From Chloroherpetonaceae bacterium (GTDB taxonomy: Bacteria; Bacteroidota; Chlorobiia; Chlorobiales; Thermochlorobacteraceae), in assembly GCA_033763895.1 (NCBI GenBank), contig JANRJQ010000007.1, positions 322,178 to 386,177 on the forward strand: DNA of 64,000 bases. The letters are read 5' to 3'. The translations under genes and the position numbers were made by a program. The notes under the pieces were generated by a model. It worked only from the letters and a program-made list of their open reading frames with translations. It made no database searches and was not told where the DNA came from. Shown in pieces: positions 3,866 through 62,741 of this stretch; position 1 is the first letter of the stretch; each line of letters begins with the position of its first letter.

Positions 3866-3866
3866 A

Positions 3867-5629: not shown

Positions 5630-5661
5630 CTTTTCGCCAATTCGCAGAATTTAGAAGTTCA

Positions 5662-7077: not shown

Positions 7078-8301
7078 ATGAAATCGCCATTAACTCTTAT
7101 CCTTCATCGAAGCGTTATCATAGGGGCGTTGGGCTATTTCGTTGATATTTATGATTTGTTGCTGTTTGGCATTGTTCGCATCGAAAGCCTAAAATCACTT
7201 GGTGTTGCGGAGTCAGCGTTTCTCCCGGTTGGTGCCTTTCTCATTAACATGCAAATGACCGGCCTTTTATTGGGCGGCGTACTTTGGGGAATTTTGGGAG
7301 ATAAAAAAGGGCGACTTTCTGTACTTTTCGGCTCTATCCTCCTTTACTCGCTTGCCAATATTGCAAATGCCTTTGTGCAAGATGTTACCACCTACGGCGT
7401 GCTGCGTTTCATTGCCGGTATTGGGCTTGCAGGCGAATTGGGAGCGGCAATCACACTTGTCAGCGAAAGTTTGCCGAGAGAAGTGCGTGGATATGGCACC
7501 TCTATTGTTGCTGGAATTGGCGTATTAGGTGCAGTCGTTGCAGCCCTTATCGGAGATGCCTTTCCTTGGCGAACCGCATATCTTATCGGAGGAGGAATGG
7601 GCTTGTTGCTACTTGCTTTAAGAGTCAGTATGCTTGAATCAGGTCTTTATGAAAAAGCAAAAAGCAGCGCGGCAACTCGTGGCAACTTCTTTCAACTCTT
7701 TTCCAATCAATCCCTTTTCACAAAATACTTGGCGTGTATCGCCATCGGAATTCCCATTTGGTATGCCATTGGAATCTTAATTACTTTTTCCCCTGAATTT
7801 GCCAAAGCCTTAGACATAAGCGGTAAAGTGAAAGCCGGCGAAGCCATCATGTACAGCTATATCGGGCTTTCCATTGGCGACTTCGCAAGCGGTATTATTA
7901 GTCAATGGTTTCAAAGCCGACGCAAAACCGTGCTTATGTTTCTTCTACTCACCGCGGCTTCAACGGCACTCTATTTCCTTCTTCCTGTTCGAACGCCTGT
8001 CGCTTTTTATTTCATTTGCCTTCTGATTGGGATTTCAACCGGCTACTGGGCCATTTTTGTCACCACGGCTGCCGAGAGTTTTGGCACGAATCTTCGGGCG
8101 ACTGTTGCAACCTCAGTTCCCAATTTTGTTCGTGGCTCGGTTGTTCCTATGACCCTTCTCTTTCAATTTTTCGCTGGAAAACTCGGCCTTGTGTGGGGCG
8201 GGGTTTTACTTGGCGTCATATCGCTTACGCTTGCACTTTGGGCACTTCGCTCGCTCAAGGAATCCTTTCATACCGATTTGAATTATCTCGAAACCCCTTA
8301 G
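7078..8301 (+). CDS. MFS transporter
   Basis: 407 aa, about 12 hydrophobic segments, and MFS motif A GILGDKKGRLSV between TM2 and TM3. Confidence 0.85.
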   Translation: MKSPLTLILHRSVIIGALGYFVDIYDLLLFGIVRIESLKSLGVAESAFLPVGAFLINMQMTGLLLGGVLWGILGDKKGRLSVLFGSILLYSLANIANAFVQDVTTYGVLRFIAGIGLAGELGAAITLVSESLPREVRGYGTSIVAGIGVLGAVVAALIGDAFPWRTAYLIGGGMGLLLLALRVSMLESGLYEKAKSSAATRGNFFQLFSNQSLFTKYLACIAIGIPIWYAIGILITFSPEFAKALDISGKVKAGEAIMYSYIGLSIGDFASGIISQWFQSRRKTVLMFLLLTAASTALYFLLPVRTPVAFYFICLLIGISTGYWAIFVTTAAESFGTNLRATVATSVPNFVRGSVVPMTLLFQFFAGKLGLVWGGVLLGVISLTLALWALRSLKESFHTDLNYLETP

Positions 8302-8326
8302 AGTTTCTTGCGCTCTGCCCTTCTCC

Positions 8327-15389: not shown

Positions 15390-15390
15390 T

Positions 15391-16326
15391 ATGAGTAAAA
15401 CAGAAGAAGCACAAGAGATACTGAAAGCATTAGGACTGCCGCCAGCACAATACAACGAAATGGCGGCATTGACATTTTTAGCAATCTGTAACATTAAGGA
15501 AAATGACAGTTGGGCAAACGCAACTCGTCAAAGTTTAGGCGTTACAAAAGGAATAATGACTTTTGTAAATGACAATTACGGTAAATCATATGCACCAAAT
15601 ACAAGAGAAACATTTAGAAGACAAGTGCTTCACCAATTTGTTCAGGCAAGGGTTGTTGACTACAACCCCGACAAACCTGATTTGCCAGTAAACAGCCCAA
15701 ATGCTCATTACGCTTTAACAAAGGAAGTTTTGGAAGTTGTAAAAACATACAAAACCAAAAATTGGGACAAAGCTCTTAAAAACTTCATTGACACGGTTGG
15801 AAAACTTTCAGAAGTGTATTTGAAAGAAAGAGAATTAAATCAAATCCCTGTTACACTTCAAAACGGAGAAACAATAAAACTTTCCGCAGGAAAACATAAT
15901 GAAGTTCAAGCTGCAATAGTTGAACAGTTTGCTCCACGTTTTGCAAATGGTGGTACACTTCTATACTTAGGCGACACAGCAAAAAAAGATTTGTTTGTGG
16001 ACGAAAAAGGGCTAAAAGATTTGGGCATTCCAATTGACCAACACAGCAAACTACCTGACGTTGTAATTTATGACAGTAAAAGAAAATGGTTGTTTCTAAT
16101 TGAAGCCGTAACTTCTCACGGACCTGTTTCGCCCAAACGACTTTTAGAGCTTGAAGAATTTTTAAAAGACTGCAAAGTTGGTAAGGTTTACGTGACCGCT
16201 TTTCCCGATATGTCAGAGTTTAAGAAACATTCAAACAACATTGCTTGGGAGACAGAAGTTTGGTTAATGGAAGTTCCTGACCATATGATACATTTTAACG
16301 GAGACAGATTTATGGGGCCAAGATAG
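15391..16326 (+). CDS. Type II restriction endonuclease, BsuBI/PstI family
   Basis: 311 aa, tightly coupled to the methyltransferase. N-terminal HTH-like EEAQEILKALGLPPAQYNEMAALTFLA and C-terminal DVVIYDSKRKWLFLIEAVTSHGPV, which match my recollection of this family. Not verified by search. Confidence 0.75.
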   Translation: MSKTEEAQEILKALGLPPAQYNEMAALTFLAICNIKENDSWANATRQSLGVTKGIMTFVNDNYGKSYAPNTRETFRRQVLHQFVQARVVDYNPDKPDLPVNSPNAHYALTKEVLEVVKTYKTKNWDKALKNFIDTVGKLSEVYLKERELNQIPVTLQNGETIKLSAGKHNEVQAAIVEQFAPRFANGGTLLYLGDTAKKDLFVDEKGLKDLGIPIDQHSKLPDVVIYDSKRKWLFLIEAVTSHGPVSPKRLLELEEFLKDCKVGKVYVTAFPDMSEFKKHSNNIAWETEVWLMEVPDHMIHFNGDRFMGPR

Positions 16327-43090: not shown

Positions 43091-44110
43091 ATGAACATTG
43101 AAAAATCCCAAATAGAATTCATTTCAGAAATAAAGTATAAAGTCCGGCAGGCGCAATACGATGCCTTAAAAGCGGTAAATATTCATCTCATCAATTTGTA
43201 TTGGGAGATTGGCAAGTCCATTGCTGAAAAACAGTCCGAAAGTTGGGGGAAAGCGATTGTCCCCACTTTATCCAAAGAGCTTCAATCAGAATTCCCCGGC
43301 ATTGGTGGCTTTTCTGAAGGAAATCTATGGTTGATGGCACAATTTTTTACTGAATATCACAGTGATGAAAATCTCGTACTACTGGTACGAGAAATTAGCT
43401 GGAGTAAGCATGTTACAATTCTTAAAAAATGTAAGGATAACTTAGAACGAAAATTCTATACTCTCTCAACAAAAAAATTCGGATGGACGAAAAACGTACT
43501 TGCCCATCACATTGAAAACAAAACCTATGAGAAGTACCTCTTAAATCAAACCAATTTCGAGCAAAGTTTACCTGATACCATTAAGAATCAAGCAGTATTG
43601 GCTGTAAAAGATGAATATACTTTCGATTTTTTGGGGCTATCTGAACAACACTCAGAGCGGGAATTAGAACAAGCCTTGATACAAAACATTAGTAACTTTC
43701 TGCTCGAAATGGGTCATCAGTTCACCTTTGTCGGGAATCAAGTGAAGTTAGCCGTAGCCGAGAAAGAGTATTTTATTGACTTGCTCCTTTTCCACCGGCA
43801 GTTGCAATGCCTTGTAGCAATTGAACTGAAAGTCGGAGAATTTCTACCCGAGTATAAAGGGAAAATGGAATTTTACCTTTCCGTACTCAATGATCAAATG
43901 AAACTACCCAATGAAAATGACAGCATTGGCATCATCATTTGCAAAGAAAAAAATAGAACCATTGTAGAATATTCGCTCAAAACTGCATCTCAACCGATTG
44001 GCGTGGCAACCTATACTCTAACGGAAGATTTGCCTTATCAATATCAAAATCTCCTGCCAAGCGGAAAGGAAATCAGCGATAAAATCAATAAGTATTTTGG
44101 TGAAATATAG
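43091..44110 (+). CDS. YhcG-like PDDEXK nuclease domain protein (DUF1016)
   Basis: 339 aa. LYWEIGKSIAEKQ...WGKAIVPTLSKELQSEFPGIGGFSEGNLWLMAQFF and C-terminal IDLLLFHRQLQCLVAIELK (PD-ExK-like). Confidence 0.8.
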   Translation: MNIEKSQIEFISEIKYKVRQAQYDALKAVNIHLINLYWEIGKSIAEKQSESWGKAIVPTLSKELQSEFPGIGGFSEGNLWLMAQFFTEYHSDENLVLLVREISWSKHVTILKKCKDNLERKFYTLSTKKFGWTKNVLAHHIENKTYEKYLLNQTNFEQSLPDTIKNQAVLAVKDEYTFDFLGLSEQHSERELEQALIQNISNFLLEMGHQFTFVGNQVKLAVAEKEYFIDLLLFHRQLQCLVAIELKVGEFLPEYKGKMEFYLSVLNDQMKLPNENDSIGIIICKEKNRTIVEYSLKTASQPIGVATYTLTEDLPYQYQNLLPSGKEISDKINKYFGEI

Positions 44111-50070: not shown

Positions 50071-51495
50071 ATGTTTCTCCGATCTCCTCATTTTCGGTTT
50101 TTGATCCTCGTAATTACATTTAATTTTCTTGTTTTCAGTGGCTGCACCAACTCAAAGATAAGCACATCTAGTTTATTTACTGAAAACCATCCTTTCATTT
50201 TCATAAAGGAATATCAAAAGTATATCCCCATTTCCGTGAATAAAGGAGATACAACAATTTACCCTGATTTGGTTTTTCATAAATTGGAAAAAGGAAGTCA
50301 TCAATACCTCAATTATTTCAATATATCATCAGAAGTTAATCAAGAAATTATAAATTTCGACACCTCACTATCTTCCTCGATATCATACTTTAATCACAAT
50401 AAAGAGATATTCTTTTCGAATGGTAGTATTTTTTATTTATTTGAAAATTTTTCTAAAAATTTATTTATTTTTCTTGCAACCCCAATTTTTATGAGTTTAG
50501 GAGTAGCATTTGGACTACTCTTTAGCCCTTTTATTATCCAAAAGGCTATTTTTGACCCCCCTGAGGTAATCTATTTTGATGTAAGAGATGAAGTTACAAA
50601 TCAATCTCTTAATTCTACACTTATTTATTGTGTACCAAATCACTTTATTTCACAAGTATTTGAAGACAGCTTGGGTTTAAGGAAACGACTGAAAGAACCA
50701 AAACTTGAGTATATAAAAATTGATTCAAATACAATCAAATTGATTCAAACGAGTTTACCGAATACTCCAACAGCTTTAACAGCCTTAGGAAATGCACTTA
50801 TACCCTTTGCCCAAACTAAGTTTATTCATGATTTTGACTATCGATATTACTCTGAAAGATTAAAGCTTTCTAATCAATCAGACACGGATGTAGAGTCGAT
50901 TAATTCAATAAAAAAACGATTCAAAAGTCGTGATACTTCTTTTACCTCGATTTATCCATTTGGTATTACTAAAAAAGATTTCTTAAATCTATTAAATATA
51001 AATCTTACTTTGGAAGAAAGTAGGAAGGTCAATTTCGACAGCATAGGTTTTTACTTCATATTTCACCGAGAGGGATACATTCCTCAATACCTTTACATCG
51101 ATTATCAAAAATTTAAAGAGACTTTGTTTAAAATTAAATTAAAAAGAAGAGAAGTTTCTGTCTCTGACAATAATTTAAATTTCTTTAATGAATTTTTGAG
51201 AATTAACTACTTTTTGCATGAAGTATGGAACATTAAAAAAAAATTTCCCAAGAAATTTAAGTTAATCCCTTTAGATACCTATTTAACATATTCAAAATTA
51301 AGTGAAATTGATGCTTCAATTGAAATTATTGAGAAATTAATACCTCAGGAACCAGTAGTAGAAATTTATAAGTTTATAAAATATCAATTTTTAGGAGAAA
51401 CAACATCCGATAAATCAAGTTCTAGGTATTTAACAGACAAAGATTTTTTTCTATTTAAATATGATTATATCTTGTTCAATGAGGAACTTTATTAA
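50071..51495 (+). CDS. Hypothetical lipoprotein (AT-rich orphan)
   Basis: 474 aa. Lipobox LVFSGC, very Asn/Lys/Phe/Ile-rich, with one internal hydrophobic segment. Confidence 0.45.
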   Translation: MFLRSPHFRFLILVITFNFLVFSGCTNSKISTSSLFTENHPFIFIKEYQKYIPISVNKGDTTIYPDLVFHKLEKGSHQYLNYFNISSEVNQEIINFDTSLSSSISYFNHNKEIFFSNGSIFYLFENFSKNLFIFLATPIFMSLGVAFGLLFSPFIIQKAIFDPPEVIYFDVRDEVTNQSLNSTLIYCVPNHFISQVFEDSLGLRKRLKEPKLEYIKIDSNTIKLIQTSLPNTPTALTALGNALIPFAQTKFIHDFDYRYYSERLKLSNQSDTDVESINSIKKRFKSRDTSFTSIYPFGITKKDFLNLLNINLTLEESRKVNFDSIGFYFIFHREGYIPQYLYIDYQKFKETLFKIKLKRREVSVSDNNLNFFNEFLRINYFLHEVWNIKKKFPKKFKLIPLDTYLTYSKLSEIDASIEIIEKLIPQEPVVEIYKFIKYQFLGETTSDKSSSRYLTDKDFFLFKYDYILFNEELY

Positions 51496-51515
51496 ATTTC
51501 TAATTCAAATTTAGT

Positions 51516-52052
51516 ATGTCACACAATTACTATCTACCATCAGATTTAAGCTCGTTAATTTCAGATGAAAAAATTGATTTCTTCGTTTACCCAAATAGAC
51601 AAAAGCCGACTTATGAATATCTGAAAGTTATAACTTTTTTTATTATTTGGCTGATTATATGCGGGATGATTACTTTTGTTATACTATCACCTCTTATTAA
51701 TGGCGAAAGTGTAACTATTTACTTTAATGATAGAGCTTATACAGGAGACTCAAACAATTTGATTCCCGTTATAGTCTCCCTTATTATTCCTATTACATTT
51801 TTTATTGGAGGAGCAGGTGTACTTATATACAATATCAATCAAATGATGCAAAAAGGGGGAATATTTGTTGGTACGATTACTCGATTAATTCATTCTCACA
51901 AAGGAAAGATTAAGGTTTATTCTTGGAGAGAATTCCTCGGGGTTTTGGAAATTGATGCTGAAGAAGGAGATGTATCGTTGAAATTAAGGACTGGAACGGT
52001 TCAAAAACAAAACGGAAGTAAGGTCTTTTTACACGATATTGTTCATATTTAG
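51516..52052 (+). CDS. Hypothetical membrane protein
   Basis: 178 aa with two TM helices. The frame continues plausibly for 20 more codons past its TAG stop (see findings). Confidence 0.45.
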   Translation: MSHNYYLPSDLSSLISDEKIDFFVYPNRQKPTYEYLKVITFFIIWLIICGMITFVILSPLINGESVTIYFNDRAYTGDSNNLIPVIVSLIIPITFFIGGAGVLIYNINQMMQKGGIFVGTITRLIHSHKGKIKVYSWREFLGVLEIDAEEGDVSLKLRTGTVQKQNGSKVFLHDIVHI

Positions 52053-52304: not shown

Positions 52305-52705
52305 GCCAGCTCGATGCGGAATCCCGCACGCCTATCATTCACACGGTGACCACGGCATGCGCCGCCTCACTTCGTCTCTCGAAGTATCGAAACAACCTGC
52401 TACAAGACACGGTCATTTCGAGGCTTGTAATATGCTCGTCAAGCTCGCACCGAGAAATCTCAGACCTTCTGCACTTCAAATATTGAGGTGGCTCTGCTTG
52501 TCGAAACCACCGTCTCGCGGGGAACAGCTTTTGAAAGGAAACCACAAAGAACACAAAGAAGAAACACAAAAGGACACAGAGAGAAAACGAGGTCATTCCG
52601 GCAAGTCGCTTCTGCGACGCGTCCGGAATCCTGCATGCCCATCATTACCACGGTGGTTGAACCTGCGACACACGGAGCCTGTCGAAGTGCCGAAACCACG
52701 AACCA
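52305..52705. repeat. Family-B composite hairpin repeat cluster
   Basis: Contains GGAATCCCGCACGCC, GAGGTGGCTCTGCTTGTCGAAACCACC, a CACAAAG-rich tract, and a ~108-bp unit at 52592-52699 that is homologous to 53409-53509. Confidence 0.85.
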
Positions 52706-52749: not shown

Positions 52750-53055
52750 TTACTCCTCAAATGGATTCTTTTCAGGACTTTGACGATTGGAAAAAAAGGA
52801 GAGGATTTCAATTCGATCGTCACTCACCTGATAATACATTGTGTTGTACTTCAGTATAACAAAACGGTGAATGGGTTTGACTTTACTTTTTGGGAAAACA
52901 AGTGGGTTTCGTGAAATTAAATCAATAACACGGTCAACTTTTTGGGCGAGTCGTTGAATCTCTTTCTCAGTAAAATTCTCTTGCAGATACTTAATCGTTT
53001 TTGAAAGCTCTTCTACGGCATTATCCGTCCAAACCACGTTATAACCACTTTTCAT
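52750..53055 (-). CDS. Type II toxin, RelE/ParE family
   Basis: 101 aa. VVWTDNAVEELSKTIKYLQENF...RFVILKYNTMYYQVSDDRIEILSFFSNRQSP is typical of ParE/RelE. It overlaps the upstream antitoxin gene by 17 nt. Confidence 0.8.
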   Translation of the reverse strand: MKSGYNVVWTDNAVEELSKTIKYLQENFTEKEIQRLAQKVDRVIDLISRNPLVFPKSKVKPIHRFVILKYNTMYYQVSDDRIEILSFFSNRQSPEKNPFEE

Positions 53056-53272
53056 ACAGTGCTTTCACTGCAAGATGTGAGGTCACTTTGCCGAGTTTTG
53101 CATCGTCAATTCCCTTTTCAATTGATGCCTTTTCATCACGAGTCAAATCATCCCACCATTCTTGATTTTCTTCCTCCTTGATTTTAAGAAGTTTCTCAAT
53201 GACTTTCGTGTCTTCCAACCCTGAAAGCCATTGAATCAATTCAATCTTCTTATCGGAAACTTGACCTTGCAT
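53039..53272 (-). CDS. Putative antitoxin
   Basis: 77 aa, acidic and helical. Overlaps the toxin start, as in a classic toxin-antitoxin operon. Confidence 0.6.
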   Translation of the reverse strand: MQGQVSDKKIELIQWLSGLEDTKVIEKLLKIKEEENQEWWDDLTRDEKASIEKGIDDAKLGKVTSHLAVKALYEKWL

Positions 53273-53344: not shown

Positions 53345-53780
53345 AACCTTGATAAATCCGTGGTTGAACCTCTTCGGCGGTTGAGCCTCTTAAAACAAAT
53401 CACTGCATGTCATTCCAAGAAGCAAAGCGCGTCCGGAATCCTGCACGCCCATCATTAGCACGGTGGTTGAGCCTGCGCCGCACTGAGCCTGTCGAAGTGT
53501 CGAAACCACCTGATCCACGGTCATTTCGTCAGGCTCAATGACCTCTTTCTTTGTCATTTCGAGCGCAGCGAGAAATCCCATCGCTTTCCCCAAGCCAGAG
53601 ATTTCTCCCTCCGCTTCGCTCCGTTCGAAATGACAACCGTTTTTGCAAATCATTCCGCCTTGTCCGTTATCTGAAAAGCAAAACTCACTCATGAATGAAA
53701 AAGGAATGTCATACCAGCTTGTCCGGTCTCAGACATTCAAAAAACTTCTGGGGTGGTTGAGCCTGTCGAAACCACAGAGC
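53345..53780. repeat. Family-B composite hairpin repeat cluster with GTCATTTCGA variants
   Basis: A unit at 53409-53509, inverted GTCATTTCGAGCGCAGCGAGAAATCC / GGAGGGAGAAATCTCTGG-type hairpins at about 53550-53640, and GGTGGTTGAGCCTGTCGAAACCAC at 53752-53775. Confidence 0.85.
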
Positions 53781-54035: not shown

Positions 54036-54166
54036 AAAGACCAATGCGAGATAAGAAGCGGTTTTACGCCTGTTTGAATTTAATTTCACTTTAACTTAAA
54101 TAATAGGGTGGTTATGCGAATGTTTCTTGAATATTTTGAGGGCGTTCGTATATCCTATTGTTCAGC
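54036..54166 (+). promoter_or_regulatory. attI-like leader, copy 2
   Basis: CCAATGCGAG..GCGGTTTTACGCCTGTTTGAATTTAATTTCA..GGTGGTTATGCGAATGTTT..TTCGTATATCCTATT-GTTCAGC. Collinear with 13515-13647 by manual alignment, with the inner repeats more degenerate. Confidence 0.55.
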
Positions 54167-54179
54167 TAAACTCCGCTTC

Positions 54180-54256
54180 GCCGAACATCGGTTTTGCGTG
54201 AGTCTTCGGGCTGCTTCGCGCCCACTGGCCCCCGCAAAGCCGCTCCCCATTAGCGG
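54180..54256 (+). repeat. attC-like imperfect palindrome 3 (short, no associated ORF)
   Basis: GCCGAAC-ATCGGTTTTGCG pairs with CGCAAAGCCGCT-cccca-TTAGCGG. It lies immediately after the leader. Confidence 0.5.
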
Positions 54257-54302: not shown

Positions 54303-55478
54303 ATGATTAAAATAACAAGTAACATATCGTTACCAAAAATTCAGAACTTATATACTCAACTTGCTTCATCCAATGATTCTGTGATTGATGTGCATTTGCC
54401 TAAAAAGATAGAAAAACTGGATTTCGGACTGTTATTCTCTTACCTACAGTTTTTATCCACTTGGGTAAGAAATAATCGTTCAGGTAAATTGTATCTACCA
54501 ATTAACAACACGGAAGAAGCAATTGAATATTTGGATGCCAATGAGTTTGTTTATCCATCCATTGTATTGGCTTGGGAGAAAGAAATTGTAAATGCGAATG
54601 GGGAAAACATAAAAGGTGAATTGAAGAATCCGAGTAAGGAATATTTCAATCGTATGGATTTCTTCGACTTAAAAGGAACTTCCGTTCCTATTTATTGCTT
54701 CGACCACGACAAATCCAACAGAGGCCTTTCACGCCACTTTTACAAGAATTTTAGAGAGTTAGTAAATGAAACCACTCTAGGTTTTAATCTTTTCAATGCC
54801 TTTAAAAAAGTTGGAGACTTCAACAAAGGTGTGTTTAGAACAGGTGTAAAAGGTCATTATGATGACTTTATAGCAATAATCCACGAACTTTTTACGAATA
54901 CACACGAACACGCAAAGACGAATGAACTTGGCTATAATCTATATCCAAATATTCGTGCATTACAATTGAAATTCCACAAGAAGCCGATTAACAAATTTGT
55001 TGAACAGTTTCAAGATTATGTAGGTCTTGTTCAATATTTCAATTCAGGATTTAATATAAATCCCCAAGGTGAATTATATCTGTTAGAAATTTCGATTTTG
55101 GATAGTGGTCCTGGCTTTGTGAAACGATATAAAAAGATAAGCGACTACAATTTGAACATATCCGAAGAGGTTGAAATTATCAAGCAATGTTTATACAGAC
55201 ACAACACTTCTGCTGATGGACTCAGAGGTGAAATTAAAGGTATTGGGCTTGACAGAGTTCTACAAACACTTGATGGAAAAGGATTTGTAAGAATAAAAAC
55301 TGGACGGGCAGATATTTTTCGGGACATGAGAAACAATCGCTATCATCATCATGACAATGCAAGCGAAATTCAGTTGAATGATTTCCAGAATAACAGCACC
55401 AACAATTTTACTGTATATCCAGTAGCAGAAGGCACTTTACTTTCTATTTTTTATCCCTTAGAATTTAATCAGCTATGA
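54303..55478 (+). CDS. GHKL/HATPase_c-like ATP-binding protein with an uncharacterised N-terminal domain
   Basis: 391 aa. N-box IIHELFTNTHEHA, G1 box LEISILDSGPGF and G2 box IKGIGLDRV. No HisKA H-box. Its stop overlaps the next start in an ATGA overlap (55475-55478). Confidence 0.7.
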   Translation: MIKITSNISLPKIQNLYTQLASSNDSVIDVHLPKKIEKLDFGLLFSYLQFLSTWVRNNRSGKLYLPINNTEEAIEYLDANEFVYPSIVLAWEKEIVNANGENIKGELKNPSKEYFNRMDFFDLKGTSVPIYCFDHDKSNRGLSRHFYKNFRELVNETTLGFNLFNAFKKVGDFNKGVFRTGVKGHYDDFIAIIHELFTNTHEHAKTNELGYNLYPNIRALQLKFHKKPINKFVEQFQDYVGLVQYFNSGFNINPQGELYLLEISILDSGPGFVKRYKKISDYNLNISEEVEIIKQCLYRHNTSADGLRGEIKGIGLDRVLQTLDGKGFVRIKTGRADIFRDMRNNRYHHHDNASEIQLNDFQNNSTNNFTVYPVAEGTLLSIFYPLEFNQL

Positions 55479-57745
55479 GAAACTACTTTATATACCAATA
55501 TGAAGACGCAGTTTCTTCAACAGGAAAACTGAGAGTTACGGTATTGTTTGTTCACCAAACAAAAATCGGTTCTCAGAATGAATTGGCTCAAGAATTAAAT
55601 AACTTTTTTCAGGAACACAGTATTACCGACAAATTGGTGGTTCTTGTTCCGAAATATCTTGATGCTTCATCTTTAGAATATTTCAAATCAGGCAGAGAAA
55701 CAACATTTCAAAGGGTTCCGGGCAAGTCAGTAGACTATTTTGATAAATGTTTGATGATTTATGAGTTTGATGCTGGCGGCAGTTTTACTTTGATTGAAGG
55801 AAAGAAACCAAAACATGAATCAAAGTTCATTTCACATCTATTGAGAAGCGGTTCAACTGTAATTTTCAAAAACAATGGCGGTTTGGTTGAATCAACTCCT
55901 GACCATCACTTTGTTTTCCCAAGCAATAAACACTGTTCTAAGTTTATACGAACAGGAAATGTTCTGATAAATCAATCAGAGATATTCTTTCTCGCTGTTC
56001 AACTTTTGAAACATACGAAGGATAAAAATATTATATACTGCGATACATCATCAATCAATGTTCTGCCATATTCGGTTTTTGAATTGAGAAGAAGGTTTAA
56101 GCAAGAGTTTGATTGTCCAATTGTCCATAGTTTTAAATCATACGATGTATTTGAAAAAAGCACTGATAGTTTTTCTCCTGAATCGTTAGTATTAATTTCA
56201 GCATCTACATCAGGTAATATCATTGACAGGCTATTAAAGGAAAAAAGAGCCGATAAAGAACAGATACAGATTATTTACTTCTTAGGTCGAAATGATAAAT
56301 TCTTAAACCATAGTGCTAATATAATTTGCAACCTGACAAAGGATTCTGATTTTCAATTAGGAGAAGAAGAATTTGAAACCTACAACAATCCTGAAGATTG
56401 TAAACTTTGTAAGAACCATTCACGACCAATAAATATTCGTGGAGACGTATTTCTTACAGTTCAGCCGAAAGTTGAAAGGCATCTTCTAACAATAAAACCT
56501 GAATATTTCGCAAAGAGTATAGCAACCTTTGCTGAACACTATAAAAGCAGATTGCCAAACGAAGGTGTAATTAAGGTCTATTACAAAGACAATTTTCCTG
56601 ATGCGAACTACGAAGTTTATTTTGATATTGTTTATCTGCTAAAGAACTTAACCAAGTTCACAAGGTTTGACGAAGCACTAAATAGACACATTGACAAATA
56701 TATACCTGCGAATACAAAATATCTTTTGCATCTCCCTGACATTGGTTCAGAAGAACTCGCAAAGCATATCCTTACTAAAATTCCATCAAGTATAAAACCC
56801 GAGTTAATAAAACTAGATTCAGGCTTTACAACTAAAATCAAAGAAGAATCTGGAACTGTTGTCATTGTTGCTTCCTGCATTACCACAGGCAAAAAACTAT
56901 TACAGATAAGCCGATTAATGCGAAATATGGAGAAGTTGAATTTGGTTTATTTCGTGGGTATTTACCGACCTGTAAATGACACGTTCGCAACTGACTTAAT
57001 TAGTGATTTAAAGAAAGGAAAAGACAAAAGCGATGAACGACCATTTGTCGCAGTTGAAACCATTTACTGTTCAATACAGCAAACCGAAACTTCTTGGGAA
57101 CTGGAAAAAGTCATTTTTGAAGACTTTATAGGTTCACTTGATGAAGACAAAGAGCCAGAAGTTTACAGCTATGTAAATGAACGACTTGAAATTCTCCGTG
57201 ATAACAAAAAACTTCGTGGTTTTAGTAATGATGTTTTACTGAAAACTGTTGGCAAACAAGATTTACGATTAAGGAAGAATTTTGCGTTCTGGAATTCATT
57301 TGAATATAAAGAAAATGAAGTAGCTCAATCAGAAGTTTACTTTACCATTTCGACAATCATTTCAAACCTTGAACAAAAGCAAATCAATTCTCATCCATCA
57401 CTTAAGCAGACAAACTATGTGAGAAATATGCTAAGTCCGAGAAACTTTCACCGATTTAATGACGGCATTATTCAAGCATCACTGCTAAGAAGCGGCAAGA
57501 CTGAATATTTCTCCTATGACCTTGACAGCGAACTTAGTTTGCAAATGAAAGAATTCCTGTTAAGTATCATTGACAAATACAATTCAGCAGACGGTGAGGC
57601 CTTAATGGAATTTTTGCTTGCAATTGGCATCAGGCGACTAAAAATGAAAAAAGAAGACCTAAAAGAAGTATTAATCAAAGCAATTAATTGTCCAGACAAA
57701 ATAGTATCAAGATTTTCAGAATACATACATAGTAAGATTCCATAA
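55475..57745 (+). CDS. Large protein with two degenerate phosphoribosyltransferase (PRTase)-like folds
   Basis: 756 aa. HHFVFPSNKHCSKFIRTGNVL...IYCDTSSINVLPYS...LVLISASTSGNII forms the first PyrE-like unit, and GTVVIVASCITTGKKLL marks the second. In both PRPP loops the acidic pair is replaced by Ala/Ser. There is a CKLC dyad between the units and a helical C-terminal ~230 aa. Confidence 0.6.
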   Translation: MRNYFIYQYEDAVSSTGKLRVTVLFVHQTKIGSQNELAQELNNFFQEHSITDKLVVLVPKYLDASSLEYFKSGRETTFQRVPGKSVDYFDKCLMIYEFDAGGSFTLIEGKKPKHESKFISHLLRSGSTVIFKNNGGLVESTPDHHFVFPSNKHCSKFIRTGNVLINQSEIFFLAVQLLKHTKDKNIIYCDTSSINVLPYSVFELRRRFKQEFDCPIVHSFKSYDVFEKSTDSFSPESLVLISASTSGNIIDRLLKEKRADKEQIQIIYFLGRNDKFLNHSANIICNLTKDSDFQLGEEEFETYNNPEDCKLCKNHSRPINIRGDVFLTVQPKVERHLLTIKPEYFAKSIATFAEHYKSRLPNEGVIKVYYKDNFPDANYEVYFDIVYLLKNLTKFTRFDEALNRHIDKYIPANTKYLLHLPDIGSEELAKHILTKIPSSIKPELIKLDSGFTTKIKEESGTVVIVASCITTGKKLLQISRLMRNMEKLNLVYFVGIYRPVNDTFATDLISDLKKGKDKSDERPFVAVETIYCSIQQTETSWELEKVIFEDFIGSLDEDKEPEVYSYVNERLEILRDNKKLRGFSNDVLLKTVGKQDLRLRKNFAFWNSFEYKENEVAQSEVYFTISTIISNLEQKQINSHPSLKQTNYVRNMLSPRNFHRFNDGIIQASLLRSGKTEYFSYDLDSELSLQMKEFLLSIIDKYNSADGEALMEFLLAIGIRRLKMKKEDLKEVLIKAINCPDKIVSRFSEYIHSKIP

Positions 57746-57779: not shown

Positions 57780-57914
57780 CCGCTAACAGCACCTTGTCAA
57801 AAGCGGGGCGGACAATGGTAAAATGAACATTAGATCATTAAATAAGCATTTGTGCTTGCATGACAGTTTGGTGCTCCTAAAGCCCCGCCCTCGGCAATAC
57901 CCAAAACGTTCAGC
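57780..57914 (+). repeat. attC-like element 4 (least canonical)
   Basis: Left box CCGCTAAC-AGC, inner stem GGGCGG (57806-57811) / CCGCCC (57885-57890), a centre homologous to elements 1 and 5 (TGCTTGCATGACAGTTTGGTG), and a right end AAAAC-GTTCAGC. Arm pairing is otherwise poor. Confidence 0.4.
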
Positions 57915-57944
57915 TAAACTCCGCTTCGCTGCGTTTAGCTGAAC
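57908..57944. repeat. Perfect 12-bp-stem hairpin at a cassette junction
   Basis: GTTCAGCTAAAC (57908-57919), a 13-nt loop, then GTTTAGCTGAAC (57933-57944). Its first 22 nt are identical to 54160-54181. Confidence 0.85.
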
Positions 57945-58001
57945 GGGGAGCATAAACAACTTCACAGCATACATTAAACAAACAAAAATATTTTTGGACA
58001 G

Positions 58002-59771
58002 ATGACAGTAAAACCCAAAATCACAGAACTACTCAAACGACTTAATGACGGAGTAATTGAAAAGGAAGAAGTAATCGCTTTATCTCTGCTTTCTTCAGTT
58101 GCAGGAGAAAGTATTTTTCTTTTGGGTGCACCGGGAGTAGCAAAATCCTTGGTTGCAAGACGACTTAAATACGCTTACAAAGACGGCAGTTCATTTGAAT
58201 ATCTTATGAACCGCTTTAGCACACCAGACGAAATATTTGGACCCGTTTCAATTTCCCAACTTAAAGACCACGACAAATACGAGAGAATTATAAAAAATTA
58301 CTTACCGACAGCAACGGTTGTTTTCCTTGACGAAATTTGGAAAGCGGGACCTTCAATACAAAACGCTTTACTAACCGTTCTTAACGAGAAAATATACCGA
58401 AACGGAGAGCAGGAAGTTCAAGTGCCGATGAAAGCACTTATTTCAGCTTCAAACGAATTGCCAAGCAAAGGCGAAGGACTTGAAGCCCTTTGGGATAGAT
58501 TTCTTGTTCGCTTAATTGTTGATGGTGTAAAGGACAAGCAGAGTTTCAATGACATGATTTCAAAGACATTGAACTCATACAGCGACACCGTTGGTGAAGC
58601 ATTGAAAATTTCTGATGACGAATACAAAAAGTGGAACAAACAAATTGACGAAATAGAAATTCTCGAAAATGTATTCAATGTAATTCACGTTATCAGGAGT
58701 TTTATAGACCTACACAATCAGCGAGAAGAAAACAAACAAAATCCGATTTACATTTCAGACCGTAGGTGGAGAAAAATTGTTAGACTTCTTAGGACTTCTG
58801 CATTTCTCAATGACCGTAAAATGGTTGATTTGATGGATTGCTTTTTAATTAAGGATTGTCTTTGGAATGAGACAGAACAAATTCAAACTGTTTCTCAGTT
58901 TGTTAAGGACGCTATCCAAAAACACGGATATAATCTTTCATTAAATATGAGTTCAATTTCAGACGAGTTGAAAGACTTTTGGAAAGAAGTGCTTGAAGAA
59001 ACAAGTCACATGAAAAAAGTTCAAATACCCAAAATTTATTATCAGCATTTCTATTTCATTGAAGGTTTTGACCGACCTCTCATAAAAATTTCAGACTATA
59101 ATCAATTAGGTGACGACTACATTAATGTAACATTCTATCAAAATTCAAATGAGGATTGGCAAAGAAGAAATTACCCGCAGAATTTTAGAATTAAATTAAG
59201 TAATAAGCCCAACAACATTGTTCATGATGGTCAACTAAGAAAAATTGAAACAACAGACAGTGAAAAACCTGCAACTAAAAGACCACACCCTGCGGTTAAA
59301 AAAGATTGGGATAAACGAGTAAAAGTAGTTCTCACAACTACAAGTAACCTCAAATCAAGAATAGATAGTTTTAAAAGTAATGACTTAAAGCATATTAGAA
59401 CAAATCTATTTGTAAATGAATCCTATGCAGAAATTGTCGAAGACAACCTAAGACAACTTCAAAATGAAATTGAAAAATTAGAAGTTGAAGTGAGTAGAAT
59501 TCAACATTTTTACGAAAATGTCGAACATGATGTTTTCATTGATTCTGCATTGCTTAGTTTGACAAATGGGAAAAGCGATTTTGCCCTATCAGAATTGACA
59601 GATGAATTTGAAGAGTGGATTTTCGAACAATTGCAAAATCTTGAGATTACAAATTCAAATGAATTTCTAAGCAACGACTTGAATTTCTATTTGAATAATA
59701 CTGACATAGATGAAGACCTTTATAATGAACTTATAGAAGCTATCGAAAACCGATTAGATAATGGACAATAA
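58002..59771 (+). CDS. ravA: MoxR-class AAA+ ATPase, RavA-like
   Basis: 589 aa. Collinear with E. coli RavA as I recall it: GESIFLLGAPGVAKSLVARRLKYAY..FEYLMNRFSTPDEIFGP..VVFLDEIWKAGPSIQNALLTVLNE..LISASNELP..LEALWDRFLVR..SDRRWRKIVRLLRTSAF. The C-terminal region is divergent. Confidence 0.85.
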   Translation: MTVKPKITELLKRLNDGVIEKEEVIALSLLSSVAGESIFLLGAPGVAKSLVARRLKYAYKDGSSFEYLMNRFSTPDEIFGPVSISQLKDHDKYERIIKNYLPTATVVFLDEIWKAGPSIQNALLTVLNEKIYRNGEQEVQVPMKALISASNELPSKGEGLEALWDRFLVRLIVDGVKDKQSFNDMISKTLNSYSDTVGEALKISDDEYKKWNKQIDEIEILENVFNVIHVIRSFIDLHNQREENKQNPIYISDRRWRKIVRLLRTSAFLNDRKMVDLMDCFLIKDCLWNETEQIQTVSQFVKDAIQKHGYNLSLNMSSISDELKDFWKEVLEETSHMKKVQIPKIYYQHFYFIEGFDRPLIKISDYNQLGDDYINVTFYQNSNEDWQRRNYPQNFRIKLSNKPNNIVHDGQLRKIETTDSEKPATKRPHPAVKKDWDKRVKVVLTTTSNLKSRIDSFKSNDLKHIRTNLFVNESYAEIVEDNLRQLQNEIEKLEVEVSRIQHFYENVEHDVFIDSALLSLTNGKSDFALSELTDEFEEWIFEQLQNLEITNSNEFLSNDLNFYLNNTDIDEDLYNELIEAIENRLDNGQ

Positions 59772-61350
59772 ATTCGATAGGTTTCAAACATTCGGTTCAA
59801 TTGCAGATGAAGCTACTAGAAGAAAAGTAGTTCAAAGCATTTATTTTCAGTTGCAAAAGAAATCAGAAAGCGGCATTGGCTTCGCCAATGCTGATACAGA
59901 TAATTTTGCTACTGCTATTAATGACATTCTCTCTAATCCCACAATGAAAGAATTGTGTTCAAAAGACCCTGAACTTTCTGAAAAGATAACACAAGATATT
60001 CTTGACTTTATAAATAAGACCAAGAAACAATTAAATAAAACTGAAAATCCTTTTGAAAATGAAATAGAGCTAAAGCAAGAATTTGAACATAGCAAAAGGT
60101 CTGAATTCAAAAATAAATGGGAGAAAGTAAATCCAACGATTAAGAACAACTATGACACAAAGGAGCTCGATGTTACTTTTTATGAAAAGGAGTTTGCCAA
60201 AAGTTTGGATGAAAAAATTAAAAACTACAAAGACAAGCCAAGTTTTGAAAGTGTAAAAGAACACTTCAATGAAAAGTGGGACGAATTACTATACAAGAGA
60301 CAAACAAAATGGGAACTTGACCAGATAGAAGAACAACGGAAAAAATTCTGTGAAGAATTATACAAACGAATTGAAGAACTAAAAAAACTTCAAGAAGCAC
60401 TTGAGCCATTTACCAAAGAATTAGGACGGCTTTGGGATATGAGTAAAGGAAATTGGCAACGAGTAAATCTTGATATTTTAAAACAGTATGCTGAACTTTT
60501 GCAGAGAGATAAATCACTAAAAGAACTTGCTGAAATGCTTGGCAAAATGCGGCAAGCTGAAAAGGAGTTTGAAGAAGAACTTTTTGCAAACATTCAATTG
60601 AAACCTGAATGGAAAGTGGAGCACGCCAGCAAATCGGACTTAATCGGTATTCACGAAAGCGATGATTTAAGCAGTTTGCTTCCTTCTGAAACAGCTTTAC
60701 TTGCTGACGAAACGATGCAATCCGTATTCTTCAAAAAGTTTGCGGAAAAGAAACTGCAAACATTCGAGTATCAAGCAAAAATGCTTTCATACCGAGAAGA
60801 AGAATTTCAGGACAAACGACAAAAGGAAAAAGAAGAAGCAAAAGGGCCTTTTATCATTTGTGTTGACACGAGCGGTTCAATGCACGGAACACCTGAAACT
60901 GTTGCCAAGACACTTTGTTTCGCCATTTTGAAAATCGCCATTCGTTATAACCGAAAGTGTTATCTCATTTCGTTTTCGACAGGTATTGAAACGCTTAACC
61001 TGACAGATTTGAAAAACTCTTTGGATAAAATCATTTCTTTTCTTTCAATGAGTTTTCACGGTGGCACAGACGCAACTCCTGCTATGAGAGAAGCACTTAG
61101 AATGTTAACAACTCAGGACTACAAAAAGGCAGACGTGATAATGGTTTCCGACTTTGTGATGTCTGCATTTGACAAAACAACACAAGACAAAGTAAAATCA
61201 GCGAAAGACAACAAAACAAAATTTCATAGTTTGGTAATTGGTAACAGCCAAAATCCTGCGACAATTAAGGACTTTGACAGTAATTGGTTTTACGACTTGA
61301 ACAATCCAAAGAGCTTATTGACACTCATTAAAAACATTAACGAACTATGA
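59761..61350 (+). CDS. viaA: VWA-domain protein, ViaA-like
   Basis: 529 aa, overlapping ravA by 11 nt. GRLWDMSKGNW...LAEMLGKMRQAE and the MIDAS motifs GPFIICVDTSGSM..FHGGTDATPA..VSDF are collinear with E. coli ViaA as I recall it. Confidence 0.8.
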   Translation: MDNKFDRFQTFGSIADEATRRKVVQSIYFQLQKKSESGIGFANADTDNFATAINDILSNPTMKELCSKDPELSEKITQDILDFINKTKKQLNKTENPFENEIELKQEFEHSKRSEFKNKWEKVNPTIKNNYDTKELDVTFYEKEFAKSLDEKIKNYKDKPSFESVKEHFNEKWDELLYKRQTKWELDQIEEQRKKFCEELYKRIEELKKLQEALEPFTKELGRLWDMSKGNWQRVNLDILKQYAELLQRDKSLKELAEMLGKMRQAEKEFEEELFANIQLKPEWKVEHASKSDLIGIHESDDLSSLLPSETALLADETMQSVFFKKFAEKKLQTFEYQAKMLSYREEEFQDKRQKEKEEAKGPFIICVDTSGSMHGTPETVAKTLCFAILKIAIRYNRKCYLISFSTGIETLNLTDLKNSLDKIISFLSMSFHGGTDATPAMREALRMLTTQDYKKADVIMVSDFVMSAFDKTTQDKVKSAKDNKTKFHSLVIGNSQNPATIKDFDSNWFYDLNNPKSLLTLIKNINEL

Positions 61351-61571: not shown

Positions 61572-62741
61572 GTGAATAATTTAGCATTTGCCGCATTTTT
61601 GCGGAGAATAGTGTTTATATTTACCGCAACAAAGTTTCAAAAAGTGGCTAAATACATTTACGAATACGAAAATTGGACAGAATTCACTTGGCGTGAAAAA
61701 TCCATAAATGCACTATTTGGGGAAGTTCGCAATCTGCAAGGCAAGATTATAGGGCAGATGAATACACTTGGTTTTGCCACAAAAGAACAGGCAACACTCA
61801 CTACACTGACACTTGACATTATTAAATCATCTGAAATAGAAGGAGAAAAACTCGACTATGACCAAGTTCGTTCGTCAATTGCAAGAAGACTTGGCATAAA
61901 TACCGCCGGGCTTATTCCATCCAATAGAAATGTGGATGGCGTTGTAGAGATGATGCTTGATGCAACTCAGAATTATCAAAACCCACTCACAAACACGCAA
62001 CTGTTTGGCTGGCATTCGGCACTTTTTCCAACTAGATATAGCGGAATGCACAAAATAGCGGTTGGTCGCTATCGAATAGGTGAAATGCAAATCGTTTCAG
62101 GTGCTATGGGAAAAGAAAAAGTTCATTACGATGCAGTTCCTGCAAGCAGTGTAAAAGAAGAAATGGATATGTTCTTAAAATGGTTTAATGACAACTCCCC
62201 AACTGACCCTGTACTAAAATCTGCAATCGCTCATTTTTGGTTTATCATCATTCACCCCTTTGACGATGGAAACGGAAGAATTGCAAGAGCGATATCAGAT
62301 TTAATGCTTGCCCGTGCAGACAAAACATCTGAACGATATTATAGCATGTCAAACCAAATTTTGATTGAACGAAAGCAATATTATGAGGTTTTGCAAAAAG
62401 TTCAACACAGCAGTGGCGATATAACAGAATGGTTAGACTGGTTTTTAAATTGCCTTAAGAATTCGTTGTTGGCTACAGACACTACTCTGCAAAAAATATT
62501 GCGTAAAACTGAATTTTGGAAAATTCACGAAAAAACCGAATTTAACGAACGACAGAGATTGGTATTAAATAGGCTCTTTGATGGATTTGATGGGAAACTA
62601 AAATCATCCAAGTGGGCAAAAATTGCAAAATGCTCGCCCGACACAGCATTGCGTGACATTAAGGACTTAATTGACAAGGGAATTTTACGCCAAGAGCATC
62701 AAGGCGGACGAAGCACAAACTACGAACTTGCCAACTTCTGA
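61572..62741 (+). CDS. Fic/DOC family protein (AMPylase-type fold with an N-terminal DUF4172-like region)
   Basis: Fic motif HPFDDGNGRIARA. The true start is probably the GTG at 61644, giving MAKYIYEYENWTEFTW. C-terminal winged-helix-like tail. Confidence 0.85.
   Translation: MNNLAFAAFLRRIVFIFTATKFQKVAKYIYEYENWTEFTWREKSINALFGEVRNLQGKIIGQMNTLGFATKEQATLTTLTLDIIKSSEIEGEKLDYDQVRSSIARRLGINTAGLIPSNRNVDGVVEMMLDATQNYQNPLTNTQLFGWHSALFPTRYSGMHKIAVGRYRIGEMQIVSGAMGKEKVHYDAVPASSVKEEMDMFLKWFNDNSPTDPVLKSAIAHFWFIIIHPFDDGNGRIARAISDLMLARADKTSERYYSMSNQILIERKQYYEVLQKVQHSSGDITEWLDWFLNCLKNSLLATDTTLQKILRKTEFWKIHEKTEFNERQRLVLNRLFDGFDGKLKSSKWAKIAKCSPDTALRDIKDLIDKGILRQEHQGGRSTNYELANF

Follow-up and report, generated by a model that had tools for sequence, protein, structure and literature searches.

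True phosphoribosyltransferases (PRTases) use acidic residues to hold magnesium and the ribose hydroxyls. Proteins of this kind act as toxins in the ShosTA and PsyrTA defence systems and form a component of Ophion (bioRxiv 10.1101/2025.09.30.679545). ShosT, a PRTase toxin, binds magnesium-bound phosphoribosyl pyrophosphate (PRPP-Mg) and disrupts purine metabolism (PMC11961720), and the PRTase-like effector of Retron-Eco11, which carries the partly degenerate motif VVILTDTIGSGNQ needed for defence, depletes PRPP when triggered by phage helicases (PMC12746101). Here we describe a two-gene cassette in a 64,000-nucleotide (nt) stretch of a Chloroherpetonaceae bacterium genome (contig JANRJQ010000007.1, forward-strand positions 322,178 to 386,177; hereafter the window), in which gene A encodes a putative, divergent GHKL protein and gene B a partner with PRTase-like units. 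The pair almost certainly belongs to PDC-M65, a catalogued candidate family, and we consider a role in conflict or defence likely for it.

Comparison with the closest described systems indicates both what the cassette shares with them and where it departs. Like ShosT, the Retron-Eco11 type III-A3 effector, the PsyrTA/RqlHI PRTase and Ophion OpnC, B appears to be a PRTase-fold protein encoded in a defence-island operon together with a nucleotide-dependent partner, and the first predicted phosphate loop of B ends in SGN, as does the TIGSGN loop of the Retron-Eco11 effector. Unlike these proteins, B has two tandem PRTase-like units as well as N- and C-terminal domains. Eco11 keeps a TD pair and ShosT binds PRPP-Mg, whereas B has no acidic residue at the positions of the acidic pair (DD), and type III retron effectors carry Gx14PNNxP, of which B lacks PNNxP. 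The partners also differ, being a helicase, a DprA-like protein or a reverse transcriptase in the known systems and a GHKL-type protein here. At most, the pair would work ‘like’ the PRTase-effector systems, its ATP-dependent partner being of a new kind.

The cassette is a copy of a catalogued defence candidate

Against PADLOC-DB v2, A matched PDC-M65A (E-value 8e-146, residues 2-390 on model positions 4-397 of 398) and B matched PDC-M65B (E-value 3.5e-289, residues 1-754 on model positions 1-758 of 763), PDC standing for phage defence candidate. Every testable feature agrees (both models, gene order, strand and adjacency), and there is very little doubt from these sequence comparisons that the pair is a copy of PDC-M65. 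It is not new, having been catalogued under that name by others. The initial annotation, made from the sequence alone, could place the pair in no named system; the PDC-M65 matches overturn this as far as the name goes, and the description of the pair as uncharacterised stands. The catalogue entry carries no domain description and no mechanism, and our literature search found no paper that names PDC-M65 in its text and no description of a GHKL-plus-PRTase system.

The designation stems from a survey of BREX, DISARM and type I restriction-modification (R-M) operons in which the gene cassettes embedded in them were collected (Payne et al., bioRxiv 10.1101/2024.01.29.577857). Its supplementary table lists CAS_00195 (FAM_00905>>FAM_02964) with the entry ‘Assign as candidate PDC-M65’, and such operon embedding is the criterion behind validated defence systems (bioRxiv 10.1101/2024.01.29.577857).

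A and B form an obligate pair that moves as two open reading frames

The annotated open reading frames (ORFs) of 391 and 756 amino acids and their overlap are borne out by the coordinates (Table 1) and by the junction, CAGCTATGAGAAA, in which the stop codon of A and the start codon of B overlap as ATGA at 55475-55478. To place this arrangement in a wider context, we assembled a synteny set of 107 loci, including 80 metagenome loci and one ‘viral’ contig; 6 of these are cut by a contig end upstream of B and were left out of the synteny count. In all 101 loci with enough upstream sequence, B is directly preceded by an A-family ORF on its own strand, and in 21 of 21 genome loci the A homologue ends 2-14 nt ahead of B. 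A-then-B synteny is obligate across Bacteroidota and Proteobacteria, which answers the question of constant co-occurrence raised in the initial annotation.

The family is large, and its close subfamily is patchily distributed (21 of 185,579 species genomes). The exact sequence of B is that of a protein in a Chloroherpetonaceae metagenome-assembled genome, and proteins 94-95% identical to B occur in Parapedobacter, Rhodonellum and a Verrucomicrobia metagenome-assembled genome, with A likewise, and the A and B homologues carry adjacent locus tags in several genomes. A profile search recovered 1,204 cluster representatives of B at E-values of at most 1e-3 and 659 at most 1e-30, mostly full length, so that the B family comprises about 1,200 clusters at 50% identity, from Bacteroidota and Alpha-, Beta- and Gammaproteobacteria. 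All of the distant relatives sampled (n=38, 24-40% identity) match PDC-M65B, and none of the 38 contains a Pfam domain. Relatives of B (22-40% identity) are also found on large plasmids, some of them conjugative, in Spirosoma, Pantoea, Agrobacterium, Rhizobium, Polymorphobacter, Cupriavidus, Pseudomonas and Burkholderia. On the Pantoea and Agrobacterium plasmids the gene immediately upstream of B belongs to the A family (hmmsearch E-values 8e-62 and 3e-40) and retains ELFxNTH, DSGxG and GxGL. The phage genome collection contained no relative of B, and an A1 profile run against the word-indexed database returned the same 140 proteins again, adding nothing.

DNA comparisons point to recent movement of the cassette. 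The window copy is 91-92% identical to copies in Parapedobacter and other Bacteroidota, and the homology runs from the start codon of A to the stop codon of B (54303-57744), with unrelated flanks: what moves is the two ORFs and nothing else. The GC content of the cassette is 0.34 (about 0.30 at third codon positions), as against 0.40-0.47 in core genes, and the cassette has been acquired recently from, or is shared with, Bacteroidota. Measured against three relatives, the ratio of nonsynonymous to synonymous divergence (dN/dS) is 0.07-0.09 for both genes, which marks strong purifying selection, and dS is similar for the two (0.34-0.37, up to 0.49 for A against one relative); A and B are therefore both functional and have travelled together. 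The annotated idea of a discrete, mobile two-gene conflict or defence module is supported by the invariable adjacency (101/101), the ORF-limited DNA identity of about 92% and the repeated defence neighbours described below.

A perfect 22-nt direct repeat brackets the window cassette (Table 1) and occurs nowhere else in the window, where 0.13 matches would be expected by chance. The downstream copy makes up the left arm and loop of a hairpin with 18-bp arms at 57907-57945. The repeat looks like a duplicated insertion or recombination site, and both copies lie beyond the homology with related cassettes, which stops at the ORF ends. We rejected an integron attC reading of the hairpin, which is only 39 nt long and has GTT at its 5' and AAC at its 3' end, the reverse of the general attC structure. 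Rfam, tRNA and promoter/terminator scans around the cassette gave nothing informative.

The pair is associated with defence genes in other genomes

In one locus (L023) the pair is embedded in a type I R-M operon, in the order HsdR-HsdM-HsdS, ABC ATPase, then A-B. A Parapedobacter locus (L022) carries HsdR, IetA/IetS, an AriA-like ABC ATPase, A-B, transposases, DRT2 with a WYL protein, and an integrase, and in Pedobacter (L026) AbiH, a MazG-like protein, a PDDEXK protein and a PDC-M54A-like giant protein lie near the pair. Other copies are found near type IIG R-M enzymes (L003, L010), an SngC/BrxH-like helicase (L020), PDC-S25, a ThsA-like SIR2 protein (L107), and, on an Agrobacterium plasmid (L109), an integrase, an antitoxin and a multiubiquitin/ThiF module. 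The 127 nearest-neighbour ORFs include 5 HsdS proteins and 5 AriA/Old/GajA-type ATPases, and short flanks of the 107 loci contain HsdM in 14 cases and HsdS in 9. The association with defence genes is strong; it is contextual and does not prove function. A location in defence islands is seen for the copies beside R-M, IetAS, DRT2 and AbiH genes; the L025 and Pantoea copies have no obvious defence genes around them.

The AriA-like ATPase deserves separate mention. A 496-amino-acid protein of this type (L022:7328-8818; PADLOC AriA E-value 1e-34; no AriB partner) is encoded 10 nt upstream of A in a subset of close relatives (L002, L009 and L022-24), and 11 of the 107 loci have a similar protein. 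As a third core gene it was rejected: it is missing from the window and from most loci, and is therefore better viewed as a frequent neighbour than as a component of the pair, although it may be either an optional third component or merely a frequent island neighbour.

Protein A has invariant GHKL-type motifs

In the GHKL superfamily, an Asn binds Mg-ATP and the Asp of the G1 box reads adenine. A Glu four residues before that Asn is the general base in GHL ATPases and in the serine kinases SpoIIAB/RsbW and PDK/BCK, and most histidine kinases are without it. The motifs quoted in the initial annotation are all present, at residues 194, 267 and 313 of A and 144, 238 and 462 of B. Across 88 distinct A-family sequences (22-94% identical), E195, N199, T200, R218, E262, D267, G269, G271, G315, L316, G327, R340 and G377 are invariant. 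In the AlphaFold2 model of A (mean predicted local distance difference test score, pLDDT, 89.5; predicted template-modelling score, pTM, 0.91), the N-box lies on a helix, the G1 box follows a strand and three strands close the domain, the last at 375-385, while a lid (residues 301-313) ahead of the G2 box has low pLDDT and is disordered. A would thus share with SpoIIAB/RsbW, PDK/BCK, GyrB, MutL, Hsp90 and MORC the E-x3-N, D-x-G-x-G, disordered lid, G-x-G-L and terminal G-T strand, in that order. The invariant Glu-x3-Asn leads us to infer an enzyme whose gamma-phosphate acceptor is either water or a side chain of a protein.

A differs from GHKL enzymes in its family-specific N-terminal alpha/beta domain and in having no DHp/H-box, receiver or S5-like transducer. 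MORC/paraMORC and GHL ATPases have an S5-fold transducer C-terminal to the GHKL domain, whereas the last strand of this domain in the model of A (375-385) lies at the C-terminus. The HisKA and receiver domains of two-component histidine kinases are absent by Pfam, which found no domain in A, and the protein has no transmembrane-like segment (maximum 19-residue Kyte-Doolittle mean 0.86); Pfam and hydropathy thus agree with the annotated lack of an H-box, a receiver and a membrane segment. Neither A of the window nor any of 36 family members matched a HATPase_c-type family in Pfam, even at E-values of up to 10, and HisKA and Response_reg gave no match.

Structure and profile comparisons lean in the same direction as the motifs without reaching significance. 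Foldseek searches of the PDB with A returned Topo VI-B, ParE/GyrB, CckA CA (probability 0.57), SpoIIAB and GRP94 on top, with phage topoisomerase II ATPase domains also among the leading matches, and in BFVD viral histidine kinases and an Hsp90 homologue led, weakly. In hhalign comparisons, the N-box of A falls on that of SpoIIAB (probability 0.2%) and its G1 box on that of a Pfam-annotated histidine kinase, neither significantly; the HisKA kinase sequence used here was genuine, and the partners SpoIIAB, Apt, PyrE and GmhA were approximate sequences. An hmmsearch of the PDB with the A and B profiles gave no match for either. A is a putative GHKL protein, by motifs invariant in 88 sequences and by weak, non-significant fold matches of a predicted structure; profile searches gave no supporting match, and the annotated GHKL ATPase is upheld as a putative assignment.

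The N-terminal domain is the least conserved part of A, with 3% of columns at least 90% conserved, and has no Pfam or PDB match. A STAS-like domain, which would have suggested partner switching, was rejected, as hhalign to SpoIIAA gave a probability of 0.2% over an unrelated segment. A weak lead is CTD11 (PF20277, ABC-3C/Lamassu), matched by 7 of the 36 A-family members at 13-20 bits over residues of about 148-240; all of these lie under the Pfam gathering threshold of 27.7 bits, and A of the window is unmatched.

Protein B appears to combine PRTase-like units that lack the acidic pair

Conservation in B was assessed over 97 distinct B-family sequences (28-95% identical). B matches no Pfam domain and nothing meaningful in NCBIfam, and Pribosyltran-type Pfam models detected none of 36 close and 38 distant members, save one UPRTase match at an E-value of 0.1. 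In contrast to these profile searches, Foldseek with the AlphaFold2 model of B (pLDDT 81.2, pTM 0.57) found 34 PDB chains at E-values of at most 1e-3, all of them type I PRTases at probability 1.0. The targets include orotate and adenine PRTases, PyrR and HGXPRT (target TM-score 0.45-0.63), and the top 50 structural matches are PRTases, not SIS proteins; the output leaves unstated whether domain 1 or domain 2 was matched. At least one unit of B, and probably both, is thus PRTase-like.

Domain 1 is modelled in the order alpha-beta-alpha-beta-loop-beta-alpha-beta-alpha-beta. Its hood segment (residues 113-166) is the most conserved part of B, with 56% mean pairwise identity and a third of columns at least 90% conserved, and residues 137-165 have pLDDT below 50 and are predicted to be flexible. 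By hhalign this hood aligns, without a significant score, with the PyrE hood FTLKSGRKSPYFFNA. In the CDTSS loop D190 is invariant, and C189, T191 and S193 are at least 95% conserved. In domain 2, G472 and R483 are invariant and S467 occurs in 93 of 97 sequences. By hhalign, at low scores, residues 455-487 match the DD loops of Apt and PyrE, with VVIVASCITTGKK aligned position for position, so that A466/S467 would stand where the acidic pair belongs.

Catalytic type I PRTases have an acidic pair followed by T/S-G-x-T in the PRPP loop. None of the 97 B sequences has a D or E at the equivalent positions 241-243 or 466-467, and the acidic PRPP-Mg pair is, as judged from this alignment, lost family-wide. 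The annotated replacement of the pair in both loops therefore extends to the whole set.

The second annotated feature, a pair of PRTase-like units, is upheld in part: the fold is found by Foldseek, and by sequence domain 1 cannot be told from a SIS-like, phosphosugar-binding unit. The ISASTSGN loop of B aligns best with ISTSGNS of GmhA (E-value 0.12, 18 columns), and this loop and the next helix-strand segment resemble the corresponding GmhA segment, so domain 1 could be SIS-like. All scores against SIS domains (GmhA, MJ1247) are insignificant, however, and an orotate PRTase-like hood precedes domain 1. Domains 1 and 2 give a collinear 87-column alignment (E-value 0.06), no better than negative controls, and an internal duplication is not proven.

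The remaining parts of B are less readily assigned. Its N-terminal domain is the least conserved (28% mean pairwise identity, 3% conserved columns), and many distant relatives align only from about residue 117. The conserved cysteines between the two units are a possible zinc site. In the helical C-terminal domain, which has no family or structure match, W541, E544, R570, Q618, F658, R660, N662, D663, G664, Q667, R672 and E712 are invariant. B has no transmembrane-like segment (maximum 19-residue Kyte-Doolittle mean 1.21).

A possible mechanism and its alternatives

The B-A family is large, coherent and of unusual architecture, and was flagged earlier by others; its function is not demonstrated by the present data. 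Synteny, mobility and context make a conflict or defence role likely. Beyond this, we tentatively propose that the pair is a working anti-phage system of a logic not characterised in others, in which a divergent GHKL protein would gate a partner with two pseudo-PRTase units, a metal-free His/Arg/Ser pocket would serve as a PRPP or nucleotide sensor or sink, and the N-terminal domains would recognise phage; as a whole this is possible rather than probable. The account that we favour over its rivals, an ATP-gated module with a PRTase-like effector at its core that would block phages through a disturbed nucleotide metabolism, is drawn by analogy with known systems; overall it is slightly less likely than not, and its particular mechanism is more doubtful.

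In this proposal A would be an active Bergerat-fold enzyme whose Glu-x3-Asn supplies the general base and the Mg ligand, and would switch B in an ATP-driven manner, being either an ATPase or a kinase of a Ser, Thr or His hydroxyl or imidazole. B would be the effector. The functional heart of the system may be the domain 1 pocket of B, formed by a flexible hood, in which His, Lys, Arg and Asn residues are invariant, and by the CDTSS and S-x-STSG phosphate loops. PRPP or a nucleotide would be bound there in the absence of the usual Mg-dependent chemistry. Because the pocket keeps the phosphate loops and the basic and His residues and lacks those that hold Mg and ribose, unusual PRPP or nucleotide binding is likely. 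Domain 2 and the helical C-terminal domain might regulate or oligomerise the protein, and the fast-evolving N-terminal domains of A and B might read an infection cue. Upon infection, the ATP cycle of A, whether by restraint or activation, would free or activate B, which would then sequester or consume PRPP or nucleotides, leading to a replication stall and arrest of the infected cell, which would resemble the action of the ShosT and Retron-Eco11 effectors.

If PDC-M65 does protect against phages, a widespread defence family would be added. If the proposed mechanism is true, it would link Bergerat-fold ATP switches with PRTase-type effectors attacking nucleotide metabolism, so far separate in bacterial immunity, and the loss of the acidic pair beside an invariant pocket would show a metabolic fold turned into an immune sensor or sink. 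Pfam covers neither of the two proteins, so that our division into domains offers concrete residues for mutation.

Several observations weigh against this proposal. The 145 candidates to which the embedded cassettes were curated (‘guilt-by-embedding’) are described in that survey as untested (bioRxiv 10.1101/2024.01.29.577857). HATPase_c misses A yet detects the two ordinary kinases of the window at about 1e-21, and the best fold matches of A, at E-values of 0.07 (PDB) and 0.17 (BFVD), are not significant. Neither protein has a recognisable toxin domain. B, without PNNxP, matches none of the ShosT, PsyrT or retron PRTase models of PADLOC; the best weak sequence matches of domain 1 are SIS proteins (GmhA model, E-value 0.11; MJ1247, 0.19); and the absence of the acidic pair from every member speaks against chemistry on PRPP-Mg, in which case B may do no more than bind a ligand. 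One copy (L025) lies between efflux genes and another, on the Pantoea plasmid, among ordinary genes, both without obvious defence neighbours. Finally, the sensor and effector roles could be reversed.

Such a reversal, which we regard as unlikely, would make A the effector, a GHKL protein kinase of the Glu-x3-Asn class (SpoIIAB/RsbW- or PDK/BCK-like) that upon triggering phosphorylates host or phage proteins or B itself, and B a sensor or scaffold whose pseudo-PRTase pockets respond to the level of nucleotides or PRPP or to a phage-made nucleotide. The invariance of the catalytic motifs of A, including the general-base Glu, would suit such a kinase, as would the lack of an H-box and transducer domain in a protein that ends with its GHKL domain; from what is generally known of type I PRTases, a PRTase-like domain that lacks the acidic pair is more likely to bind than to catalyse, and the invariant, flexible Ser/Thr/His-rich loops of B could accept phosphate. 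However, no kinase substrate or kinase-family membership is established for A, and the hhalign match to SpoIIAB covers the N-box alone. The most conserved pocket sits in B and would suit catalysis or an effector function no less than sensing, and the known defence PRTase-like proteins are effectors.

Less likely again is an addiction module that stabilises mobile elements and defence islands, with B as toxin and the upstream A as ATP-dependent antidote, and with no direct anti-phage role. The compact, translationally coupled operon with the putative regulator first is what one would expect of a toxin-antitoxin (TA) system, the pair resides on large and in part conjugative plasmids and adjoins TA genes, integrases and transposases, and in RqlHI and ShosTA a PRTase has been put forward as the toxin of a TA system (PMC11961720). 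On the other hand, TA and defence functions are not exclusive, ShosTA being both (PMC11961720), and A and B are far bigger than typical TA components. Their variable N-terminal domains suggest recognition of changing targets, and embedding in R-M operons is the criterion that has yielded validated defence systems.

A role in nucleic-acid handling is slightly less likely still. Here the PRTase folds and cysteine cluster of B would bind single-stranded DNA or RNA, as in ComFC and PyrR, and A would be an ATP-driven GHL-type clamp, so that foreign nucleic acid is recognised or processed. ComFC consists of a zinc finger and a PRTase domain and binds single-stranded DNA. Like B, ComFC and PyrR have a PRTase-like fold beside conserved cysteines; PyrR structures are among the significant Foldseek matches of B, whose invariant C285 and C312 and nearly invariant C309 (96/97) lie between its two domains, and Topo VI-B, GyrB/ParE and phage topoisomerase II ATPase domains head the match list of A. 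Yet no sequence relationship to ComFC or PyrR and no competence or pyr context was detected, and the architecture of B is much larger. A has neither the transducer domain nor a DNA-binding or cleavage partner typical of GHL clamps and its Foldseek support is not significant, no nuclease domain occurs in A or B, and competence or DNA-uptake genes do not recur beside the pair.

That the pair serves nucleotide salvage or phosphosugar metabolism in a housekeeping or regulatory capacity, which the metabolic nature of the PRTase and SIS folds and the copies among ordinary genes (L025, Pantoea plasmid) might suggest, is nearly excluded by the patchy distribution of the close subfamily (21/185,579), by transfer at about 92% DNA identity across phyla confined to two ORFs of foreign GC content, and by the lack of conserved metabolic neighbours, in addition to which the catalytic acidic pair is missing in all members and the profile searches, raised in the initial annotation as a way to reveal such a pathway, matched no Pfam or NCBIfam metabolic family.

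Table 1. Features of the cassette and of its surroundings in the window (aa, amino acid residues of the protein named)
Feature	Position	Strand	Description
Upstream copy of perfect 22-nt direct repeat GTTCAGCTAAACTCCGCTTCGC	54160-54181	+	122 nt upstream of A
Gene A	54303..55478	+	391 aa, member of PADLOC PDC-M65A
A N-terminal alpha/beta domain (aa 1-135)	54303..54707	+	confident AlphaFold2 beta-alpha-beta pattern; variable
A helices (aa 136-185)			AlphaFold2 model
A C-terminal GHKL/Bergerat-type ATP-binding domain, putative (aa 186-391)	54858..55475	+	motif order and predicted secondary structure
A N-box HELFTNTHEHA (aa 194-204)	54882..54914	+	E195, N199, T200 invariant
A G1 box DSGPG (aa 267-271; DSGPGF from 267)	55101..55115	+	D267, G269, G271 invariant
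A G2 box KGIGL (aa 312-316; GIGLDRV from 313)	55236..55250	+	G315, L316 invariant; K312, G313 at least 95% conserved
Gene B	55475..57745	+	756 aa, member of PADLOC PDC-M65B
B N-terminal domain (aa 1-112)	55475..55810	+	variable
B domain 1 (aa 113-292)	55811..56350	+	predicted orotate PRTase-like fold unit with hood; SIS-like as alternative
B hood motif HHFVFPSNKHCSKFIRTGNVL (aa 144-164)	55904..55966	+	H145, H153, F157, R159, N162 invariant
B domain 1 loop CDTSS (aa 189-193)	56039..56053	+	position of the PRTase pyrophosphate loop; follows strand 186-189
B domain 1 phosphate loop LVLISASTSGN (aa 238-248)	56186..56218	+	S242, S244, T245, S246 invariant
B cysteine cluster C285 ... C309-x2-C312	56327..56410	+	C285, C312 invariant; C309 in 96/97
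B linker with conserved cysteines (aa 293-385)			
B domain 2 (aa 386-535)	56630..57079	+	PRTase-like; secondary structure ordered as in domain 1
B domain 2 loop VVIVASCITTGKK (aa 462-474)	56858..56896	+	A466/S467 on DD positions
B all-helical C-terminal domain (aa 536-756)	57080..57742	+	signature F-x-R-F-N-D-G-I-I-Q...R672...E712
Downstream 22-nt repeat copy	57908-57929	+	163 nt downstream of B; within hairpin 57907-57945
ParE/antitoxin pair	52750-53272	-	Pfam
MoxR-VWA overlapping gene pair	58002-61350		AAA+ protein with bpMoxR domain (Pfam E-value 1e-52), ViaA-like VWA protein
Fic protein (DUF4172-Fic-HTH)	61572-62741		PADLOC SoFic match, E-value 8e-48
PstI/BsuBI-type restriction enzyme and Eco57I/N6-type methylase	13821-16326		low-GC patch, outside the A-B island
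YhcG/DUF1016 PDDEXK nuclease	43091-44110		outside the A-B island

The cassette marks a defence island in the window

In this Chloroherpetonaceae genome the pair is the marker of a defence island of about 13 kb, a low-GC stretch that extends from mfd to a Cys/Met-metabolism gene and in which a ParE-type TA pair, a bpMoxR-VWA pair and a Fic protein of the SoFic kind are also encoded. The initial annotation had listed R-M, TA, Fic and MoxR-VWA genes as neighbours; the last three adjoin the cassette as described, whereas the sole R-M genes of the window, of the PstI type, lie about 38 kb away, though R-M genes are adjacent to the pair in other genomes. MoxR, VWA and Fic were rejected as components of the system, since they adjoin the pair in none of the first 21 genome loci.

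The SoFic-like gene is likely a single-gene defence system in the same island. The bpMoxR domain is that of ‘MoxR-vWA-beta-propeller ternary systems’, and the AAA+ protein that carries it is RavA-like, under the NCBIfam cutoff. The MoxR-VWA pair has no meaningful PADLOC match, the MoxR protein giving only a weak one to an RtcR-type AAA model (5.6e-05), and may be a separate conflict module dependent on nucleoside triphosphates. An 82-nt direct repeat (91% identical) at 52618-52699 and 53428-53509 flanks the ParE/antitoxin pair, with shorter related copies at 52484-52510 and 53749-53775; around this pair, from 52.05 to 54.3 kb, there is no convincing further ORF, no Rfam match and no tRNA. Directly after mfd, two genes of very low GC content (0.29) at 50071-52052 encode a 474-amino-acid protein with a lipoprotein-like N-terminus (…FSGC) and a 178-amino-acid protein with hydrophobic segments. 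Neither product has a significant Pfam or PADLOC match, and the two genes may be another foreign cassette.

Three of the loci from other genomes show features of their own. In L027 a partial A-like ORF (hidden Markov model positions 1-292) lies downstream of B on the opposite (-) strand, from about 3268 onward, and may be a second, truncated or rearranged copy. L107 (IMGVR_UViG_2847593706_000001, 1-10654), the only ‘viral’ contig with the pair, carries it at the contig end, adjoining the PDC-S25 gene, a gene for a 1074-amino-acid protein without assignment and a RadC/JAB-like gene; this setting suggests a defence island within an integrated element more than a phage gene. On the Agrobacterium tumefaciens plasmid pQ15_94_1 (L109, 12360-16034), the distant A-B pair adjoins a Bil-type ubiquitin-like module with genes for a multiubiquitin-domain protein, an E1-like enzyme of the ThiF family, a DUF6527 protein and a helicase of the UvrD type, and the locus also contains an integrase, a Phd antitoxin and thyX.

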